Positions 2,444 through 35,129 of a stretch of 37,878 bases of DNA are shown here, in pieces. The stretch comes from a virus (lineage: Duplodnaviria > Heunggongvirae > Uroviricota > Caudoviricetes): IMG/VR virus record IMGVR_UViG_2654587996_000002; one strand, written 5' to 3'. Numbering within the stretch: position 1 is the stretch's first letter; each line of letters opens with the position of its first letter. The notes under the pieces are model-generated. The model did no database searches. It was not told where the DNA came from and saw only the letters and a list, made by a program, of their open reading frames with translations. The translations under genes were made by a program, and so were the position numbers.

Positions 2444-3376
2444 ATGACCGATATAAACGATGTAATCAAGACCATTGATGAACTTATTGATGGCGGCGTA
2501 CTGACGCAGTATGCCATCGCCAGAGAGGCGGGAATTTCCGACGGCACATTATCGGCTTTCCGTAAGGGAAAATATAAAGGTGATAACGCTGCTGTGGCTG
2601 CTTCCCTGCGTTCCTGGTATGAGAACTGGAATAAACAAAGCGCACTGCCGGAACCGCCGCAGTTTGTGGAAACGCAGACAGTCCAGGAGCTGCGCGCGCT
2701 GTTTCAGGCGGTTCGCCTGATGGGCTGTATTAACGTCATTGTGGGCGTACCGGGTGTGGGTAAAACGGCCACGGCCCGCAATTACTGTCAGGAGCAACCG
2801 AACACCTGGATGATCACCCTGTCGCCCGCGCATTCCAGCGTCACGGAGTGTATGCTGGAGCTGGCAGAGGAACTGGGGATTGATTACACCCGCGCGAACA
2901 AGGGGGCGTTATCCCGCGCCATCCGCCGTCGCCTGATGGGAACGCGTGGACTGGTGATTGTTGATGAGGCGGATCATCTTGGTATTGACGGTCTGGAACA
3001 ACTGCGTGCAATCCAGGACGCCACGGGGATCGGGATGGTGCTTATTGGTAACCCGCGCGGACTGTTTAAGGGTGGACGCCGCACCGTTGATGATTTATCG
3101 CGCCTGTTCAGCCGTCTTGCCCGTACAAAACAACTTCGCAAGGCCAAAAAGGCGGATGTGCTGGCTATTGCCAGGGCATGGGGGATTAGTGGTGAGGCCG
3201 AGCTGGCTGTCATGCAGGCTATCGCTGAAAAGCCGGGAGCCTTACGCGTTCTGACACATACGCTTAACCAGGCGTGGATCACCGCCAGCGGTGAAGGTGC
3301 CGCGCTGACAGAAAAACATATTAATGCGGCCTTTAAAGAGGTTTATACCAACCCTGAATTACTCTCACAGGTGTGA
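2444..3376 (+). CDS. Mu B-like ATP-dependent target DNA activator (AAA+)
   Basis: 310 aa with Walker A GVPGVGKT and Walker B-like LVIVDEAD; N-terminal HTH-like region; immediately downstream of A. Confidence 0.88.
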   Translation: MTDINDVIKTIDELIDGGVLTQYAIAREAGISDGTLSAFRKGKYKGDNAAVAASLRSWYENWNKQSALPEPPQFVETQTVQELRALFQAVRLMGCINVIVGVPGVGKTATARNYCQEQPNTWMITLSPAHSSVTECMLELAEELGIDYTRANKGALSRAIRRRLMGTRGLVIVDEADHLGIDGLEQLRAIQDATGIGMVLIGNPRGLFKGGRRTVDDLSRLFSRLARTKQLRKAKKADVLAIARAWGISGEAELAVMQAIAEKPGALRVLTHTLNQAWITASGEGAALTEKHINAAFKEVYTNPELLSQV

Positions 3377-17027: not shown

Positions 17028-18152
17028 ATGAAGACGAAAAACACGCCCAAACTTGCTTATGCCATTCTGAATGCCATCAGCCTGTCCGCAGACGGGGACG
17101 GTGACTGGTGTCAGATCATGCCAGCCGGTCGGGTAAAGGCCCGTGACGGTCGCCCGGAAAAACCGGCTGAAGGCTGGCTGATTAACCGTGCGACCGTTGA
17201 GCGCATGGTATCCCGGGTTGTGGCGCTCAATCAGCCGGTAAAAATTGACTACAACCACCAGAGCCTGATTAAGGGGCATCCGGCACCGGCTGCCGGTTTT
17301 GTCATGGCCTCACCGGAAAACTTCCGCTTCAGTGAAGAGCGGGGTTTTGAAGTGCGTCCGAAGTGGAACCCTCCGGCCATTGAACACCTGCGCAATAACG
17401 AGTTTCCCTGGTTTTCCCCGGTGATTGGTTATGACGAAATCACCGGTGAACCTGTTGAGCTTCGGATGCTGGCTATTACCGGTGACCCCGGTCTGACTGG
17501 CATGAATCCTGTCGCCGCACTGTCGGCGGATGACCTTTATAACGCCTTAAACCCTCCTTTAAAGGACACCTCCATGAATGAGCAATTACGCCAGTTGCTG
17601 ACGGCGCTCGGTCTGACCGTGGCTGACGGTGACGAATTTACGCCGGAACTGGGCACGGCGGCGCTGTCTGCCCTTACCGGGATCAAAACCCGTGCGGATG
17701 CGCACGACACCCTGAAAACGCAGGTTGCCAGCCTGTCAGCAGAGCTGGAAACCGCAAAAGGCACACCAACTGGCGGCACTATTGATCTGACGAAATACGT
17801 GCCCGTTGAGACGTATAACGCCCTGCGTACCGAATATGTCGCGCTGTCGGCACAGCACGGCAGCACCACGCTGGAGCAGTTGCTGGATAAGGCCGAGTCC
17901 GAAGGACGCATTTTCAAAAGCGAACGCGGATACATGGAAGGACTCGGACAACAGATTGGCGTTGCAGCACTTTCTGCACAGCTTGACGCCCGCCAGCCGG
18001 TTGCGGCTCTGACCACTCTTCAGACCGACACCGTGACCGTGCCGGATAAAAAGACCGCCACTGCTGTGCTGTCGGCTGAAGATATCGCCGCCGCCCATCT
18101 GCTGGGTAAAACCGAAGCCGAGTTCCTGAAAATGAAAGAGGAAATGCAATAA
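17028..18152 (+). CDS. Mu I-like head protease / scaffold protein
   Basis: 374 aa; helical Ala/Leu-rich C-terminal half typical of scaffold; stop overlaps start of major head gene; preceded by 177-nt intergenic region. Confidence 0.75.
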   Translation: MKTKNTPKLAYAILNAISLSADGDGDWCQIMPAGRVKARDGRPEKPAEGWLINRATVERMVSRVVALNQPVKIDYNHQSLIKGHPAPAAGFVMASPENFRFSEERGFEVRPKWNPPAIEHLRNNEFPWFSPVIGYDEITGEPVELRMLAITGDPGLTGMNPVAALSADDLYNALNPPLKDTSMNEQLRQLLTALGLTVADGDEFTPELGTAALSALTGIKTRADAHDTLKTQVASLSAELETAKGTPTGGTIDLTKYVPVETYNALRTEYVALSAQHGSTTLEQLLDKAESEGRIFKSERGYMEGLGQQIGVAALSAQLDARQPVAALTTLQTDTVTVPDKKTATAVLSAEDIAAAHLLGKTEAEFLKMKEEMQ

Positions 18153-19099
18153 TGCCTACCCCGATTACACCGGCGATGATCACCGCCCTGATGACGGGCT
18201 ACCGTTCTGATTTTCAGGCCGGGATGTCCATGGCTCCGTCGCAGTACCAGAAAATTGCGATGACCGTACCGTCCACGTCGAAATCCAACACCTACGGCTG
18301 GCTGGGGCAGTTCCCGCAGTTCCGTGAGTGGATTGGCTCCCGCGTCATCGAGAAGATGAAAGCCTATGGCTACGCCATCGTGAACAAAACCTTTGAAGGC
18401 ACCGTTGCCATTAGCCGCGATGACTTTGAAGACGACAATCTTGGCATCTACTCTCCGTTGTTCCAGGAGATGGGGCGCGCTGCGGCGGCACAACCGGATG
18501 AACTGGTCTTTGCTGCACTGCGTGACGGGATCAGTGCGGCCTGCTATGACGGCCAGAACTTCTTTGATACCGAACACCCGGTTTACCCCAAAGTGGATGG
18601 CTCCGGTGATGCGCAGATGGTCAGCAATATGTTTGTGGCAAAAACCGGCTCTGTCGGTGCACAGGCGGATTACAGTGGCCCGGCCTGGTATCTGCTCGAC
18701 TGTTCCCGCGCGGTAAAACCGCTGATTTATCAGGATCGCCGCAAGGCCGAACTGGTTGCCCAGACAAAAGTCGATGAAGGCCGTGCGTTTACTGATAACG
18801 AGTTTGTGTTCGGTGCTTCCGCCCGTCGCAATGTGGGCTACGGCTTCTGGCAGATGGCCTACATGATGCAGTCACCGCTGACGCTGGATGCGCTGTGGCA
18901 CGGCTGGTCAGCCATGCGTGACTTTAAGGCTGACGGTGGCCGCAAACTCGGCATCAAACCCACCCATATTGTTGTCCCCACCTCGCTGGAAAAACAGGCG
19001 GTGCAGCTGCTGGAGCGCGAGCTGTTCGCGGACGGTAACACCACCGTCTCTAACGAGATGAAGGGCAAGCTGGAGCTGGTTGTCGCGGATTATCTGTAA
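18152..19099 (+). CDS. major head subunit T (Mu gp34-like)
   Basis: 315 aa (Mu T about 305 aa); follows protease/scaffold; conserved Mu order. Confidence 0.8.
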   Translation: MPTPITPAMITALMTGYRSDFQAGMSMAPSQYQKIAMTVPSTSKSNTYGWLGQFPQFREWIGSRVIEKMKAYGYAIVNKTFEGTVAISRDDFEDDNLGIYSPLFQEMGRAAAAQPDELVFAALRDGISAACYDGQNFFDTEHPVYPKVDGSGDAQMVSNMFVAKTGSVGAQADYSGPAWYLLDCSRAVKPLIYQDRRKAELVAQTKVDEGRAFTDNEFVFGASARRNVGYGFWQMAYMMQSPLTLDALWHGWSAMRDFKADGGRKLGIKPTHIVVPTSLEKQAVQLLERELFADGNTTVSNEMKGKLELVVADYL

Positions 19100-19104
19100 A
19101 CGGT

Positions 19105-19127
19105 GAGCCGGGCTTACGGCCCGGCTC
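19105..19127 (+). terminator. stable stem-loop after major head gene (no U-tract; possible partial terminator or mRNA stabiliser)
   Basis: GAGCCGGGC-TTACG-GCCCGGCTC perfect 9-bp stem just after the capsid stop. Confidence 0.35.
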
Positions 19128-19142
19128 CTGCGGAGGGCAAAT

Positions 19143-19550
19143 ATGAATGAACATCACACTGTGGCAGCAACAGATGATTCAGGCCTTCAGGTCAGTGGTG
19201 ACAGTCCTGTCACGGTTCTGGCAGAAGTGCGTTGCAGTCGTGCGCAGTTTCGTCGTGCGGGGTTCCTGTTCATGCGGGGACGCCAGCAGGTTGACGTCAC
19301 CCCGGAGCAGCTTGCCCGACTGGAAGCGGAGCCATGCCTCATTGTACGAATACTACAGACGACTGGTGATGATGCGGGAGCCGTGGCGGGTGTGGTTCAT
19401 GCAGCGACCGGTGCAGATTTAGCCGAAGCCGAAGCCGAAGCCGAAGCCGAAGCCGAAGCCGAAGCCGAAGCCGAAGCCGAAGCCGTACAGGATGCGGCCC
19501 GGAAAAAGACCGGCAATAAAGCTAAACAGAAAAAAAAGGCGCGCGCATGA
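19143..19550 (+). CDS. hypothetical head-region protein with (Ala-Glu)10 repeat and Lys-rich C-terminus
   Basis: ORF between T and gp36-like gene; contains the GCCGAA tandem repeat; C-terminal KKTGNKAKQKKKARA; stop overlaps next start. Confidence 0.5.
   Translation: MNEHHTVAATDDSGLQVSGDSPVTVLAEVRCSRAQFRRAGFLFMRGRQQVDVTPEQLARLEAEPCLIVRILQTTGDDAGAVAGVVHAATGADLAEAEAEAEAEAEAEAEAEAEAVQDAARKKTGNKAKQKKKARA
19422..19484 (+). repeat. perfect hexanucleotide tandem repeat (GCCGAA) x10.5 encoding (AE)n
   Basis: Read directly from the sequence; in frame within CDS 19143-19550. Confidence 0.95.
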
Positions 19551-19966
19551 ATTACGCCACCGAAACCGATATGCGGGCACGTTACCGCGAGGATTTGCTC
19601 AGGCCATTACTGGCCGTGCCCCGTTCGGATGAACCGGACACGCGCAAGCTGAACCGGGCACTGACGGACGCGTCTGCCCTTATCGACAGTTACCTGTCTG
19701 CCCGTTACACGCTGCCGCTGGCGGTGGTTCCGGCGGTTCTTGTTCAGCACTGCTGCACGATTGCCTTTTATTACCTGTGCGATCAGCGGGCATCCGATCA
19801 GGCGCGTGACCGTTACCGTGAGGCGCTGGCATGGCTGAAAGACGTCATGAACGGCAATGTGCCGGTCGGCGTGGATACCGACGGTGCGGCCCCTGAATCC
19901 GGGGATTTACCGCAGGTGCAGTCTGATGCGGCGGTGTTCGGGCACAACCAGAAGGGCTTTATATGA
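19547..19966 (+). CDS. Mu gp36-like head-tail connector protein (DUF1320-like)
   Basis: 139 aa; conserved position after capsid; overlapping start/stop with neighbours. Confidence 0.6.
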   Translation: MNYATETDMRARYREDLLRPLLAVPRSDEPDTRKLNRALTDASALIDSYLSARYTLPLAVVPAVLVQHCCTIAFYYLCDQRASDQARDRYREALAWLKDVMNGNVPVGVDTDGAAPESGDLPQVQSDAAVFGHNQKGFI

Positions 19967-20529: not shown

Positions 20530-20808
20530 ATGACAACCATTTTTATTAAACCTGCGCCGGGATGCCTGATTCGCGATCCCGACACGATGACTCCGCTCTC
20601 ACAGGACGGTGAAGAGAAACCCTTCACTCCGTTCTGGTGCCGCCGTCTTAATGATGGCGACGTCATTGTGGTGGATAAAACGGCGGAGCCTGCCCCGGCT
20701 GCCACAACAGGTAATACCGGCGAGGCTGCAAAACCAGCGGGAGCGGCAGCAGAAAAACCTGCGGCGGCGGCTGAAAAACCCGCAGCATCAGATAAGGGGA
20801 CGTCCTGA
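20530..20808 (+). CDS. small protein with Ala/Pro/Lys-rich C-terminal low-complexity tail (Mu gp38 position)
   Basis: 92 aa; C-terminus AAKPAGAAAEKPAAAAEKPAAS; stop overlaps sheath start. Confidence 0.5.
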   Translation: MTTIFIKPAPGCLIRDPDTMTPLSQDGEEKPFTPFWCRRLNDGDVIVVDKTAEPAPAATTGNTGEAAKPAGAAAEKPAAAAEKPAASDKGTS

Positions 20809-30465: not shown

Positions 30466-31355
30466 TGTTTCATGTTGATAATAATTCCGGCGTGGCGAAT
30501 ATGCCTGCGCTGGCACCGGCGCAGAGTAATACCACCACCTGGTTTACCGAAGGTGACGGACAAAAAGGTATCAGCTGGATTGGTCAGGACTGGCTGAATA
30601 TTCTCCAGGCCGAACTGCTGAATATTCTGGCTGAAGCCAGTATTCAGCCGGATAAGGCGCAGTTAAACCAGCTTACGCTGTCCATTAAAGCCATTATCGC
30701 TGCGAATGCTTTTTCCCGGAAAAATAACCTGAAAGAAATTGCTGATGCCGGTGCGGAGGCTCAGCGTCTGGCCCGTGGTTATCTTGGTCTGGGGACGCTT
30801 GCCACAAAAAACAGTCTTGGTCCCGGTGACGTTAATGCCCTGGCGAAGGATCAGAATCTGGCCGACCTGGAGAATACGGGAACCGCCCGTAATAATCTGG
30901 ATGTTTACAGCAAAAGCGAGGGTGATAACCGTTACCTGCGCAGGGAGCAGAACGGCGCAGACATTCCGGATAAAGGGGCTTTTATCGATAACGTCGGTTT
31001 ACGGGAAACGGTAAACAGAGCCGCGAACGCACTGCCATCGAACGGAACGGCCGTTGCCGCGAACAGGCTGGCAAATGCCCACACAATTAATGGGGTTCCT
31101 TTTGACGGAACGCAGGATATAAACATCACTTCTGGTATGACTCTGCTGGATGGTGATGCCCGTTATGTGCAGAATGTGAGACTGGGTTCAGAAATGTCTG
31201 TATTAATGCCATTCGGGGGAAAAGTCGGTATAGGAGGATGTGTAATAACGGCGTTATCTATAGCGGGTGAAGTGGATAACAGTGGCGATTTTGCTTATTT
31301 TCGCCCACTACAGATATACATAAATGGCTCATGGATTACGGTATCTCAGTTATAA
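30465..31355 (+). CDS. tail fibre protein S (constant part plus currently expressed variable part Sv)
   Basis: GAGGAG RBS before ATG 30465; C-terminal ~115 codons lie inside the invertible segment and are paralogous to the oppositely oriented 31963-32328 ORF. Confidence 0.75.
30982..31007 (+). promoter_or_regulatory. gix-like recombination site (left boundary of invertible segment)
   Basis: TTATCGATAACG-TC-GGTTTACGGGAA; inner half-site identical to that of the right site in inverted orientation; resembles Mu gix / Salmonella hix sites. Confidence 0.7.
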
Positions 31356-31406
31356 ATAGGCGGTAAATAATATATTTTAAAACAGATTTATTTCCAGGAG
31401 GATTTT

Positions 31407-31928
31407 ATGGAACTAAAAAATATAACCCGTTATTATCCTGAAAATATGCCATATGGTAATAATGTTCAGTATTTTCAGAGTGAAGATGGTAAGGATTTCT
31501 ACGAGTCCCTGCCATTATTCACCAAAAAATATAAACTTTGCATAACACCTGACAGCGGCGTTATCTGCTCAATATCACAGGACGCCTCGGCGCTGTATCC
31601 TGTGGGTTTTTCCGTGGTTGAGAGCGACGAACTCCCTGAAGGCACTGATATTTCAGGTAACTGGAAGTTTGATGATGGTGTCATCTCACCGCTTCCGGTT
31701 GACTACGACAAAAAAGCGAAAACAATGCATCAGTCATATCTTAATCAGGCATATGAAAAGATTAATGACTGGAGAACTGAGTTACAGCTGGGCACGATTA
31801 GTGATGAAAACAGAGCTGCGCTTACACGATGGATGGAATACATCAGTCAGGTGAAAAAAATGGAACTACCTGCGATTAAAAACAAAGCTGAATTTGACGA
31901 CATTAAATGGCCGGAAAAGCCTGAATAA
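31407..31928 (+). CDS. tail fibre assembly protein U
   Basis: 173 aa; AGGAGG RBS; directly downstream of tail fibre gene. Confidence 0.7.
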   Translation: MELKNITRYYPENMPYGNNVQYFQSEDGKDFYESLPLFTKKYKLCITPDSGVICSISQDASALYPVGFSVVESDELPEGTDISGNWKFDDGVISPLPVDYDKKAKTMHQSYLNQAYEKINDWRTELQLGTISDENRAALTRWMEYISQVKKMELPAIKNKAEFDDIKWPEKPE

Positions 31929-31932
31929 CGTA

Positions 31933-31953
31933 AAGGGTGCTTATCGCACCCTT
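31933..31953. terminator. bidirectional hairpin between convergent U and S'v
   Basis: AAGGGTGC-TTATC-GCACCCTT perfect 8-bp stem followed by TTTTCCTTT; sits between U stop (31928) and S'v stop (31963). Confidence 0.6.
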
Positions 31954-31962
31954 TTCCTTTAA

Positions 31963-32328
31963 TCAGACGGATGAAACTGTGCGCCAGCCATTACCGATAT
32001 ATATCTGCACCGGACGGTAATAAACGCCTCCGATATTATCGGCTGAACTTTTCCCGGTATCCTGCACGTTAATACCTGAAAGCATACAACCGGAAGGTGC
32101 GCCATAACTCCAGGACATTTCATTACCTCCGGGTGAATGGTAACTCTGGGCACCAAGCTGAACGTTGCTAACGTATTTGTTATCAGCAGTAGCTTCGGTC
32201 ATACCGGAGTTAATGTATATATCCTGCGTCCCGTCAAAGGGAACCCCATTAATATTTCTTGGGGTGGCGAGTTTATTCGAGGCAACGGCGGTGCCGTCCA
32301 ATGGCAGAGCATTCGCCGCCTTATTCAC
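31963..32328 (-). CDS. alternative tail fibre C-terminal segment S'v (silent in this orientation)
   Basis: Minus-strand ORF with no ATG of its own; frame continues through the right gix site. Protein is paralogous to Sv (AANALP..GTAVA.N.LA....[13 protein letters not shown]-terminal RP.QIYI..W.TVS). Confidence 0.7.
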   Translation of the reverse strand: MNKAANALPLDGTAVASNKLATPRNINGVPFDGTQDIYINSGMTEATADNKYVSNVQLGAQSYHSPGGNEMSWSYGAPSGCMLSGINVQDTGKSSADNIGGVYYRPVQIYIGNGWRTVSSV

Positions 32329-32422: not shown

Positions 32423-32995
32423 ATGCTGATTGGGTATATCAGGGTGTCAACAAATGACCAGAATACGGCGCTACAGAGAAATGCGCTGGAATGTGCAGGA
32501 TGTGAGCTGTTTTTCGAAGACAGAATAAGCGGTAAGACAAGGGAACGTCCCGGCCTTAAACGCGCATTAAAGCGACTCCGGCCAGGGGATACCCTGCTGG
32601 TCTGGAAACTGGATCGTCTTGGACGTAGTATGCAGCACCTTGTCCTTTTAACAGAAGAACTCCGGCAGCGCGGCGTTAACTTCCGCAGCATTACGGACAA
32701 TATTGATACATCCACTCCCATGGGACGTTTCTTTTTCCATATAATGGGCGCACTGGCGGAAATGGAGCGGGAACTCATTATTGAACGTACACGCGCGGGT
32801 CTTGCTGCTGCCCGTGCTCAGGGGCGTCATGGCGGCAGACCTCAGAAACTGACAGGGAAAGAGCGGGAGCAAATCGCCCGTTTGCTGGCTAATGGCGAGT
32901 CCCGTAAACAAATCGCACTGATATTTGATATTGGCCTGTCCACCCTTTATCGTTATTTTCCTGCCTCACCGGCTCCGTCACCAAAAGTACCGTGA
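32423..32995 (+). CDS. gin: Gin-family serine DNA invertase
   Basis: MLIGYIRVSTNDQNTALQRNAL...GDTLLVWKLDRLGRSM...MGRFFFHIMGALAEMERELIIERT closely matches recalled Mu Gin / Hin; AGGAG RBS. Confidence 0.92.
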   Translation: MLIGYIRVSTNDQNTALQRNALECAGCELFFEDRISGKTRERPGLKRALKRLRPGDTLLVWKLDRLGRSMQHLVLLTEELRQRGVNFRSITDNIDTSTPMGRFFFHIMGALAEMERELIIERTRAGLAAARAQGRHGGRPQKLTGKEREQIARLLANGESRKQIALIFDIGLSTLYRYFPASPAPSPKVP

Positions 32996-33080: not shown

Positions 33081-35129
33081 ATGTCAGACTCCCAGTGGAA
33101 AATGCTCTCCGCCATGCCCGGAGAGTTTTCAGTCAAGGTTGCCGGTGGCACGGTGGCATTTATTGAAAGTCCTTTCAGGCCTTCGGGTAATAAAGGGGGG
33201 ATCACCTTCGCAGACTGCGTGATCCGCTTCAGCACGAAAGAGCCATTATGGGTAATGCCGGTATCCGGCAATCCCAGCGCAGAAATCACCAGTTCAGGTG
33301 TGACCGGCATTATTCCGATCACATCTGACGTGGCCGGAACACTCACGCCTTCTGACTGGAATGCACCGGATAACGCCGGACCGTCTGGCGGTACAAATGG
33401 CAGCAGTACAGAGCCGGAGTATTACTATGTGCTTCCACTGGCCGGGCAGTCCAACGGGATGGCCTACGGTGAAGGGCTTCCGCTACCGGCTTCATTCGAC
33501 CGCCCTGAACCGCGCATTAAGCAACTGGCACGTCGCAGCACGGTAACGCCCGATGGTACGTCGTGCACATATAACGATATCATTCCCGCAGACCACTGCC
33601 TGCATGATGTGCAGGACATGAGCGGGATAAACCACCCGAAAGCTGACCTGAGTAAAGGGCAGTATGGTTGTGTCGGCCAGGGGCTGCATATTGCCAAAAA
33701 ACTGCTGCCTTATATTCCGCAGAATGCCGGGATACTTCTGGTTCCCTGCTGTCGTGGTGCTTCGGCATTCACCACCGGTGATGACGGCTCATTCAGTGAG
33801 GCCAGCGGTGCTTCCGCTGATTCTTCACGCTGGGGAGCCGGTAAACCCCTGTATCATGACCTGGTAAGCCGTACCAGAGCGGCGCTGGCGAAGAACCCGA
33901 AAAACAAACTTCTGGCAGTGGTCTGGATGCAGGGAGAAGCAGACCTTGCATCGGGAAGTCAGCAGCATAATGGTTTATTCACAGCCATGGTTCAGCAGTT
34001 CAGAACCGACCTGTCTCCACTTGCAGCGCAGTGCGTGAGTGGAAATGCTGCCACGGTGCCGTGGATTTGTGGTGACACCACGTATTACTGGAAAAACACG
34101 TATGCCACGCAGTATGAAACAGTCTATGGAGCATATAAAAATCTGACCGCACAGAATATTTTCTTTGTGCCGTTCCTGACGGATGAGAATGGACAGAACA
34201 CGCCAACGAATGCTCCGGTGGAAGACCCGGATATTGTGGCTGTCGGGTATTACGGTGCGGCATCCCGTACCCAGGGCAGTTTTGTCTCCACACAGCGTGA
34301 CAGCCATTTCAGCTCATGGGCACGCAGGGGCATCATTTCTGACCGTCTGGCCTCAGCCATTCTGCTCCATGCGGGACGCACGGCTGAAGTTATGGGCGGA
34401 CAGGCCGTGCCGCCGGATGAAAAACCATCCCCTGACACGCCATCAACGCCGTCAACGGACGGGAAATCAATGACGACGCTGTTTTCTTACCGCGCATCGG
34501 AGTCAGGCGGAGCACTGACGCCACAGGGCTGGGGGGCGGAAGGCGGTAGTGCTGCTGTTGTGGATGATGTCGGTGCCAGCGGGGGCAAGGCGCTGAAGCT
34601 GACAAAACAGACCGGAAAGTCATGGTTTATGCAGCATGATGCCGGTAATGGTGCCGACCTGCTGGAAAAAGGTGGCCTTGTCAGCTGTCGTTTTAAACTT
34701 GATGGCGCGCTTACGGCTAATCAGTACGCACTGGCGCTGTACTGGCCGGTTTCTTCGCTTCCTCAGGGCGTCACACTGGAAGGTAATGCCGGTCATAACC
34801 TGCTGGCATCGTTTTACGTTCAGAGCGATGCCACAGACCTTATCGTGATGTACCACAAGGGTAATCCAGACCAGAACACGAAGCTGGGTTCATTCGGTGC
34901 ATTTAATAACGAGTGGCATACGCTGGCATTCCGTTTTGCCGGTAATAACAGCATTCAGGTGACGCCGGTGATTGATGGTAAGAACGGGGAACCGTTCATG
35001 CTGTCTCAGTCACCTGTCGGTTCTTTTGCGGCAGACAAGTTACGCCTGACCGATATCACCAGTAATGCAACGTATCCGGTACTGATTGACAGCATTTTGG
35101 TGGAAGTGAATAACCCGTCAGCAGGATAA
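33081..35129 (+). CDS. large accessory protein: SASA-like carbohydrate O-acetylesterase core plus C-terminal lectin/LamG-like domain
   Basis: 682 aa; LPLAGQSNGMAYGEG (GQSN motif) and VVWMQGEADLASG (QGE motif) as in sialate O-acetylesterase-like esterases; Gly/Ser/Thr/Pro linkers; C-terminal ~200 aa resembles concanavalin/LamG-type carbohydrate-binding folds. Confidence 0.6.
   Translation: MSDSQWKMLSAMPGEFSVKVAGGTVAFIESPFRPSGNKGGITFADCVIRFSTKEPLWVMPVSGNPSAEITSSGVTGIIPITSDVAGTLTPSDWNAPDNAGPSGGTNGSSTEPEYYYVLPLAGQSNGMAYGEGLPLPASFDRPEPRIKQLARRSTVTPDGTSCTYNDIIPADHCLHDVQDMSGINHPKADLSKGQYGCVGQGLHIAKKLLPYIPQNAGILLVPCCRGASAFTTGDDGSFSEASGASADSSRWGAGKPLYHDLVSRTRAALAKNPKNKLLAVVWMQGEADLASGSQQHNGLFTAMVQQFRTDLSPLAAQCVSGNAATVPWICGDTTYYWKNTYATQYETVYGAYKNLTAQNIFFVPFLTDENGQNTPTNAPVEDPDIVAVGYYGAASRTQGSFVSTQRDSHFSSWARRGIISDRLASAILLHAGRTAEVMGGQAVPPDEKPSPDTPSTPSTDGKSMTTLFSYRASESGGALTPQGWGAEGGSAAVVDDVGASGGKALKLTKQTGKSWFMQHDAGNGADLLEKGGLVSCRFKLDGALTANQYALALYWPVSSLPQGVTLEGNAGHNLLASFYVQSDATDLIVMYHKGNPDQNTKLGSFGAFNNEWHTLAFRFAGNNSIQVTPVIDGKNGEPFMLSQSPVGSFAADKLRLTDITSNATYPVLIDSILVEVNNPSAG

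Follow-up and report, generated by a model that had tools for sequence, protein, structure and literature searches.

The closest described relatives of the gene studied here are gp35 of phage Mu and HI1506 of the Haemophilus influenzae prophage FluMu, and YqbF of Bacillus subtilis, a skin/PBSX-type prophage protein (PDB 2HJQ), is also among the closest known systems. An NMR study of HI1506 (Sari et al., Protein Sci 2007) reportedly found that an unstructured linker, some 30 residues long, connects two domains, and is reported to have proposed nucleic-acid binding from positively charged patches. A common layout runs through Mu gp35, the protein of the Yersinia phage Tongde, two Edwardsiella-type relatives and distant members of the family: an N-terminal tail, the FluMu_N domain, a linker and a C-terminal domain. 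The N-terminal tail is variable; the linker is of low complexity and very variable in length, distant members differing greatly in both its length and its composition; and the C-terminal domain, of about 45 residues, is conserved around the motif …RIRxAVAxLxxxNPxHFTxxGxPKVxAV…LG…QIxAAL.

Tandem repeats with 6-bp units are well known from Escherichia coli O157:H7, where several of the hexanucleotide loci used in PulseNet-type MLVA (O157-3, -9, -17, -19, -25 and -37) lie within ORFs. Loops as large as 6 nt escape mismatch repair in E. coli, and 6-bp VNTRs are therefore the most variable loci in O157 typing. A third point of reference is the set of small proteins encoded next to major capsid genes. 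Cryo-EM of the Mu virion showed no cement or decoration proteins and did not resolve gp35, which was considered possibly 'an additional connector-related protein' (PMC11915804), and no gp35 homologue appears in the list from SuMu virion proteomics. The Mu-like siphophage JBD30 encodes a decoration protein after its capsid gene, with a beta-tadpole fold unrelated to gp35 (PMC11445458).

The locus described here lies in a stretch of 37,878 nucleotides from a Caudoviricetes virus (IMG/VR record IMGVR_UViG_2654587996_000002), referred to below as the window. It is nearly an entire Mu-like prophage, running from transposase A (278-2368) through terminase, portal, protease I, the major head protein gpT, sheath, tape measure and baseplate genes to a Gin-like invertase. 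Of 5426 complete E. coli genomes, 227 contain a region that matches the DNA around gp35 at 90-98% identity; most of these are genomes of Shiga-toxin-producing strains, and O157:H7 Sakai with its prophage Sp18 is one of them. Some E. coli genomes carry two to four copies of the prophage region (for example, records NZ_AP022815.1 and NZ_CP062782.1), and the 228 matching records hold it at 265 places. A plasmid carries it at one place, and Stx-converting phages (LC727895 and LC727881) at two. Protease I, gpT, the gp36 adaptor, gp37, a DUF2635 protein and the sheath are encoded in the same order as in Mu, and the features around gp35 are as follows.

18152..19099, plus strand: gene for the Mu-like major head subunit gpT, the upstream neighbour (Pfam Mu-like_gpT, E=3.3e-119).
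19101..19130, plus strand: GC-rich hairpin directly 3' of the gpT stop, with a core stem of 10 bp (19105-19114 / 19118-19127) and no T-run.
19132..19137, plus strand: Shine-Dalgarno-like GGAGGG, 5 nt 5' of the ATG, read directly from the sequence.
19143..19550, plus strand: gp35/HI1506-related gene of 135 aa (ORF list, Pfam, PHROG, PDB, RefSeq annotation).
19203..19358, plus strand: folded N-terminal FluMu_N domain, aa 21-72 (AF2, Foldseek).
19359..19421, plus strand: non-repetitive part of the linker, aa 73-93, TTGDDAGAVAGVVHAATGADL (AF2; homologous to the linker of the Edwardsiella relatives).
19422..19481, plus strand: the (GCCGAA)10 microsatellite encoding (Ala-Glu)10, the variable element (sequence, TRF, shuffles, relatives).
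19482..19487, plus strand: degenerate terminal unit GCCGTA (Ala-Val); most relatives have GCCGGA (Ala-Gly).
19488..19547, plus strand: basic tail QDAARKKTGNKAKQKKKARA, net charge +8, in A-rich DNA that also holds the gp36 translation-initiation region.
19547..19550, plus strand: ATGA, the overlap of the gp35 stop and the gp36 start, read from the sequence.
19547..19966, plus strand: gene for the gp36 head-tail adaptor, the downstream neighbour (Pfam Phage_Mu_Gp36, E=5.8e-36; PHROG 195, head-tail adaptor).
Peptides of the window gp35: AGFLFMR, QQVDVTPEQLAR and LEAEPCLIVR.

TRF reported a single strong tandem repeat in the window, at 19421-19485, with a period of 6, 10.8 copies, 100% matches and a score of 130. 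In codon register it consists of ten GCCGAA units (19422-19481) followed by one unit with a single mismatch, GCCGTA (19482-19487). The 18-mer (GCCGAA)3 occurs nine times in the window and not once in 100 dinucleotide-preserving shuffles. An earlier note on this DNA had described a perfect repeat of 63 bp in a small ORF between the major head and connector genes; the length is accurate, corresponding to ten units plus GCC, and the flanking genes are indeed gpT (18152-19099) and gp36 (19547-19966). The reading of the repeat as poly(Ala-Glu) followed by a Lys-rich tail also holds, given that ORF 19143..19550 carries the array in frame and its product continues from (AE)10 through AV into the tail, with nine K/R in 20 residues. 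RNA or DNA structure was ruled out as the cause of the repeat, since the repeat region folds worse than shuffled sequences (z=+1.2).

By homology, ORF 19143..19550 is a real gene, the homologue of Mu gp35 and Haemophilus HI1506 (Pfam FluMu_N, PF17891). Residues 36-72 match FluMu_N with 34.4 bits against a cut-off of 25.8 bits (E=1.7e-8), and the ORF also matches PHROG 3622, a family with no assigned function (E=6.6e-70), and PDB 2OUT, the NMR structure of HI1506 (E=6.3e-5). AF2 models residues 21-72 with a pLDDT of about 88-91 as four strands, a helix (54-61) and a further strand, and a Foldseek search with this model returned 2OUT as the top hit (prob 1.00). The gene is annotated in E. coli RefSeq genomes as "HI1506-related protein" (ECs_4975 in prophage Sp18 of Sakai), and its counterpart at the same position in Mu, Mup35, is noted as an 'HI1506 homolog'. 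That the ORF is real in the frame first proposed is borne out by the fact that only frame 0 matches FluMu_N, PHROG 3622 and 2OUT and yields a confident fold over aa 21-72. No family support was found for a (Gly-Phe)n ORF on the minus strand (19419-19580) or for a 91-aa ORF in the +2 frame (19147-19422). Polymorphism by codon position within E. coli did not discriminate between reading frames, and frame 0 is settled by the family-level evidence of Pfam, PHROG, PDB and fold.

Wider searches returned little. No relative was found in GTDB representative genomes, in which one scan was swamped by the low-complexity AEAEAEAE pattern, and tblastn against a phage collection, too insensitive to reach Mu gp35, recovered only two Stx-phage records with an inserted Mu-like element. 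The exact window protein was absent from a collection of 15 billion sequences, and the terms 'HI1506' and 'ECs4975' had no match in the literature search.

The window protein shares with the FluMu_N family an N-domain above the gathering score, the position between gpT and gp36 and an unstructured linker after the N-domain, but it lacks the small helical C-terminal domain, making it a truncated variant rather than a canonical two-domain member. Proteins of the Sp18 type and the Edwardsiella relatives stay collinear up to and including the linker (…GDDxGxVAGVVH…D-L), after which, in the former, the MAFFT alignment shows (AE)n and QDAxRKKTGNKAKQAKKARA instead of the C-domain. In the alignment, the C-domain of Mu, Tongde and five further homologues (P0083, P0086, P0090, P0097 and P0098) has no counterpart in the window protein. 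Judged by these alignments, the Sp18-type lineage has lost the C-terminal helical domain of the family. The N-domain is retained: E. coli and Edwardsiella proteins, at 42–46% overall identity, share an invariant core comprising C31, R33, F36-R38, G40, the VTPEQLARL motif and PCL. Residues 76-135 are predicted to be disordered and AF2 gives a pLDDT below 50 for residues 76-119, so that the repeat is predicted to sit in an intrinsically disordered linker. This arrangement (a folded part at aa 21-72, a low-pLDDT linker and a basic C-terminus) agrees with the view, also put forward from the sequence, that the repeat links an N-terminal domain to a basic tail. The linker of Mu gp35 contains 'LAEAG', identical to the one-copy E. 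coli allele.

The tail itself varies among relatives, with endings such as KQAKKARA, EQARA and KPARKASA. MAFFT places GCCGAAGCCGG over the ancestral GCCGTTGCCGG, which makes an origin of the tail from the C-domain suggestive but unproven. Local alignments of the tail DNA with the C-domain DNA of Edwardsiella, the relative L031 and Mu were no better than shuffles (p about 0.3–0.4), so that a frameshifted or read-through ancestral C-domain is not supported as the source of the Lys-rich tail.

For copy number, alleles from 19 complete E. coli genomes were read at the DNA level, together with that of the window. The GCCGAA units numbered 1, 2, 5, 6, 6, 8, 9, 10, 10, 10, 11, 12, 12, 13, 13, 14, 16, 17 and 20, with gene lengths among the alleles read of 354 to 459 bp. 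Arrays were pure in all alleles read but one, which has two GTCGAA units. Gene lengths in 60 of the 228 matching E. coli records, sampled at even spacing, implied 1–20 units in a broad distribution with no dominant class, and IMG/VR contigs added 1-, 2-, 3- and 7-copy alleles. Among alleles whose flanks show no substitution over about 1 kb, unit counts of 8, 10, 13, 14 and 20 occur. Two cattle isolates, strains 140 and 119, share the chromosomal site of the prophage, and in 41.1 kb of sequence, which takes in the entire prophage and its two host junctions, their only difference is a single GCCGAA unit (13 versus 14). A difference of this kind is expected from replication slippage in situ within a lysogen lineage, as are the duplicated mutant units (VEVE, SESE, AGAGAG and TETV) seen among protein variants in a large database. 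The locus thus shows the marks of a VNTR, with perfect head-to-tail copies far beyond chance and whole-unit differences between otherwise identical sequences.

The earlier note had predicted slippage in 6-bp steps that preserve the frame and had suggested comparing copy number across related prophages, in which the repeat proves to be anything but invariant, at 1 to 20 copies; the 13 and 14 copies within identical 41-kb regions show the predicted step size. Preservation of the frame is likewise upheld, no out-of-frame allele having been found among the 60 sampled lengths and the 25 alleles read.

The array also leaves its mark on databases. Draft assemblies often stop exactly at the repeat, and a 92-residue product ending in '…AGTD' (P0126) occurs on 156 contigs. 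Partial proteins of 92–103 aa lie on hundreds of contigs from assemblies that end at or inside the repeat (one IMG/VR contig, L025, ends inside the array, with its partial gene at 3001-3279), and clustering of proteins at 90% identity merges different repeat lengths. Public protein sets are consequently biased towards short alleles and under-represent long ones.

We consider it probable that the feature is a near-neutral, hypermutable coding VNTR, changed by slipped-strand mispairing, in the disordered, length-tolerant linker of a gp35/HI1506 homologue without its C-domain; slippage as the mechanism, the near-neutrality of length and translational coupling to gp36 are what we infer from the data. 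Whole GCCGAA units would be gained or lost by mispairing when the lysogen chromosome, and presumably the phage, is replicated. The unit being two codons, every such event would leave intact both the frame and the ATGA-coupled start of gp36, an essential adaptor gene, and whole-unit changes would not be purged for that reason. The escape of 6-nt loops from mismatch repair fits both the purity and the instability of the array. What would remain after loss of the C-domain is a folded N-domain of 50 residues, a floppy linker and a short basic tail, and in such a protein linker length may be largely tolerated and drift between 1 and 20 copies. The locus cannot be an on/off phase-variation switch, because the length of its unit is a multiple of three.

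Selection was compared on the same prophage set for 94 non-repetitive codons of gp35 (19143-19424), the last 99 codons of gpT (18800-19096) and gp36 (19547-19963). pN/pS was 0.75 for gp35 versus 0.08 for gpT and 0.06 for gp36, placing gp35 at about ten times the values of the flanking genes and indicating, on these sequences, that this one small gene is under relaxed or diversifying selection. The weaker constraint on gp35 than on its neighbours favours tolerated over functional length variation. The ORF is intact in every allele read, a sign that it is kept by some selection, which could stem from the coupling to gp36 alone. The ATGA overlap between the gp35 stop and the gp36 start is also found in Mu and Edwardsiella and suggests translational coupling of the two genes. 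Under such coupling a frame-breaking change would probably also lower synthesis of the adaptor, which 6-bp slippage never does. In the relative L031, gp35 has a separate stop and a 3-nt gap precedes gp36, so coupling is not obligatory.

Length variation might instead be adaptive, with (Ala-Glu)n serving as a selected, fast-evolving spacer or polyanion that sets the reach, or neutralises the charge, of the Lys-rich tail. The tail would then belong to a virion-associated or DNA-binding protein, and a lysogen population would yield phage with heritable, quickly changing properties, the repeat acting as a contingency locus by length, not on/off. We regard this reading as unlikely, although several observations speak for it. 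Copy number is extremely polymorphic, and the net charge of the protein moves from +3 (pI 9.1) at one copy to -16 (pI 4.6) at 20, that of the C-terminal region ranging from +7 to -12 across copy numbers; should the basic tail work electrostatically, so large a swing could hardly be without effect. The raised pN/pS relative to the neighbouring genes and the several tail variants could equally be the product of diversifying selection. A distant family member, P0099, has an analogous build of N-domain, helical spacer and K/G-rich tail, and the basic patches of HI1506 are said to have led to the nucleic-acid-binding proposal. However, copy numbers spread widely and evenly without favouring any one length, and a single haplotype carries 8 to 20 copies. 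The domain that follows the linker in the rest of the family is missing, which looks more like decay than refinement, and the Mu virion maps show neither gp35 density nor a decoration protein (PMC11915804).

A rather improbable alternative is that the gp35 ORF persists solely as a leader for the translation of gp36, its product being a functionless, decaying remnant. Ribosomes on gp35 would reach the overlapped gp36 start, the amino-acid sequence, repeat included, would be irrelevant, and the Lys-rich tail would be a by-product of the A-rich initiation region of gp36. The conservation of the ATGA overlap in Mu, Edwardsiella and the window, the loss of the C-domain and a pN/pS of 0.75 are compatible with this, as is the A-rich tail-coding stretch, which ends in AAGG 7 nt before the gp36 ATG. 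A pN/pS below 1, an N-domain that AF2 still folds with a pLDDT of about 90 and the invariance of its core residues between E. coli and Edwardsiella at 42–46% overall identity argue against it, as do the separate stop and 3-nt gap of L031, which show that coupling is not obligatory.

A bolder proposal, which we hold to be very unlikely, treats (Ala-Glu)n as a heritable, fast-switching rheostat of charge and length, that is, a contingency locus acting through graded protein charge, not frameshift. A head or portal component would hold the protein by its N-domain and the Lys-rich tail would bind DNA, while the adjacent polyanion, with a charge of -1 to -20, would progressively auto-inhibit or extend the tail. 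If this were true, lysogen lineages would keep generating phage variants that differ in DNA retention, packaging or stability. That the repeat is an assembly error, or that the true gene lies in another frame or strand, is refuted for practical purposes: short-read assemblies do often break exactly at the repeat (as in P0126 and L025), and polymorphism within E. coli alone does not separate the frames, but more than 200 complete genomes, most of them from long reads, contain the array at differing lengths, only frame 0 has Pfam, PHROG and PDB families and a confident fold, and RNA of the repeat forms less structure than shuffled versions do (z=+1.2).

As to what the protein does, fold searches with gp35 matched no decoration protein, so that neither fold nor sequence places it among capsid decoration proteins. 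The roles offered by the earlier note, a head decoration or internal protein with a possibly DNA-binding tail, gained no support from the analysis. Lambda gpD, T4 Soc/Hoc and JBD30 gp39, all decoration or minor capsid proteins, resemble it in being encoded by a small gene next to the major capsid gene, and JBD30 has its decoration protein at the same position of a Mu-related head module (PMC11445458). Our speculative guess is that gp35 is a flexible, low-occupancy or non-essential nucleic-acid-binding accessory of head assembly or completion, rather than a lattice decoration.

Other parts of the window deserve mention. RNA folding gives the hairpin at 19101-19130 a stability of -23.9 kcal/mol (z = -2.8), reached by 0 of 200 shuffles; it was not called as an intrinsic terminator and may stabilise the mRNA or act as an attenuator, and so set the ratio of capsid to downstream expression. 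The DUF2635 (Mu gp38-like) protein encoded at 20530-20808 has a conserved N-terminal part of about 50 residues and a low-complexity tail rich in A, E, K and P (…AAEKPAAAAEKPAASDKGTS) that differs in length and sequence from its relatives, the whole protein having 81 aa in O157, 67 aa in Mu and 85 aa in Edwardsiella; judging by these comparisons, it would be a second variable disordered tail in the head-tail junction module. A stretch at about 31140-32200, covering the C-terminal part of the tail fibre and the fibre-assembly genes, has no blastn match to the prophage of O157 strain 140, while its flanks match at 94% and 74%; it adjoins the Gin-like recombinase gene (32423-32995) and looks like a swapped host-range cassette in an invertible region. 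Between the invertase and com/mom lies an ORF of 682 aa (33081-35129), a putative cargo gene whose O157 counterpart is annotated only as 'DUF6645 domain-containing protein'.

The practical interest of the locus is that it is a highly discriminating in-frame VNTR on Sp18-like, Mu-like prophages, which about 4% of complete E. coli genomes carry, chiefly those of STEC. It separates isolates that are otherwise identical over 41 kb, which makes it useful for typing. The regular breakage of short-read assemblies at the repeat matters for assembly, for annotation quality and for the clustering of alleles in protein databases. For the gp35/HI1506 family, the locus indicates that the linker tolerates a change of 40 residues and 19 charges and that a lineage can do without the C-terminal domain, and both observations constrain hypotheses on the role of gp35.

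Set against known systems, the locus joins two that have already been described, the annotated gp35/HI1506 family and coding hexanucleotide VNTRs, and involves no new mechanism or kind of system. With phase-variable contingency loci, as in Neisseria, Haemophilus, Campylobacter and some phage genes, it shares local hypermutation of a simple sequence repeat inside a gene. However, their units of 1, 2, 4, 5 or 7 nt shift the frame or the promoter spacing; the 6-nt unit of the window, with no out-of-frame allele, shifts neither and alters length and charge, not an on/off state. The hexanucleotide VNTRs of O157:H7 likewise have perfect 6-bp units that are in frame when coding and that change stepwise by slipped-strand mispairing, with copy numbers that differ among very close isolates. 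No use of the ECs_4975 locus as a VNTR or MLVA marker was found in the searchable full text, which covers few of the key MLVA papers. The difference from the O157:H7 loci is that the locus rides on a transposable prophage found in only about 4% of complete E. coli genomes. With Mu gp35 and HI1506 it shares the position between gpT and gp36, a homologous N-domain, a disordered linker and a stop that overlaps the gp36 start, and it differs from them in that the C-terminal helical domain, a three-helix domain in HI1506, is replaced in the window by (AE)n and a Lys-rich tail of 20 residues.
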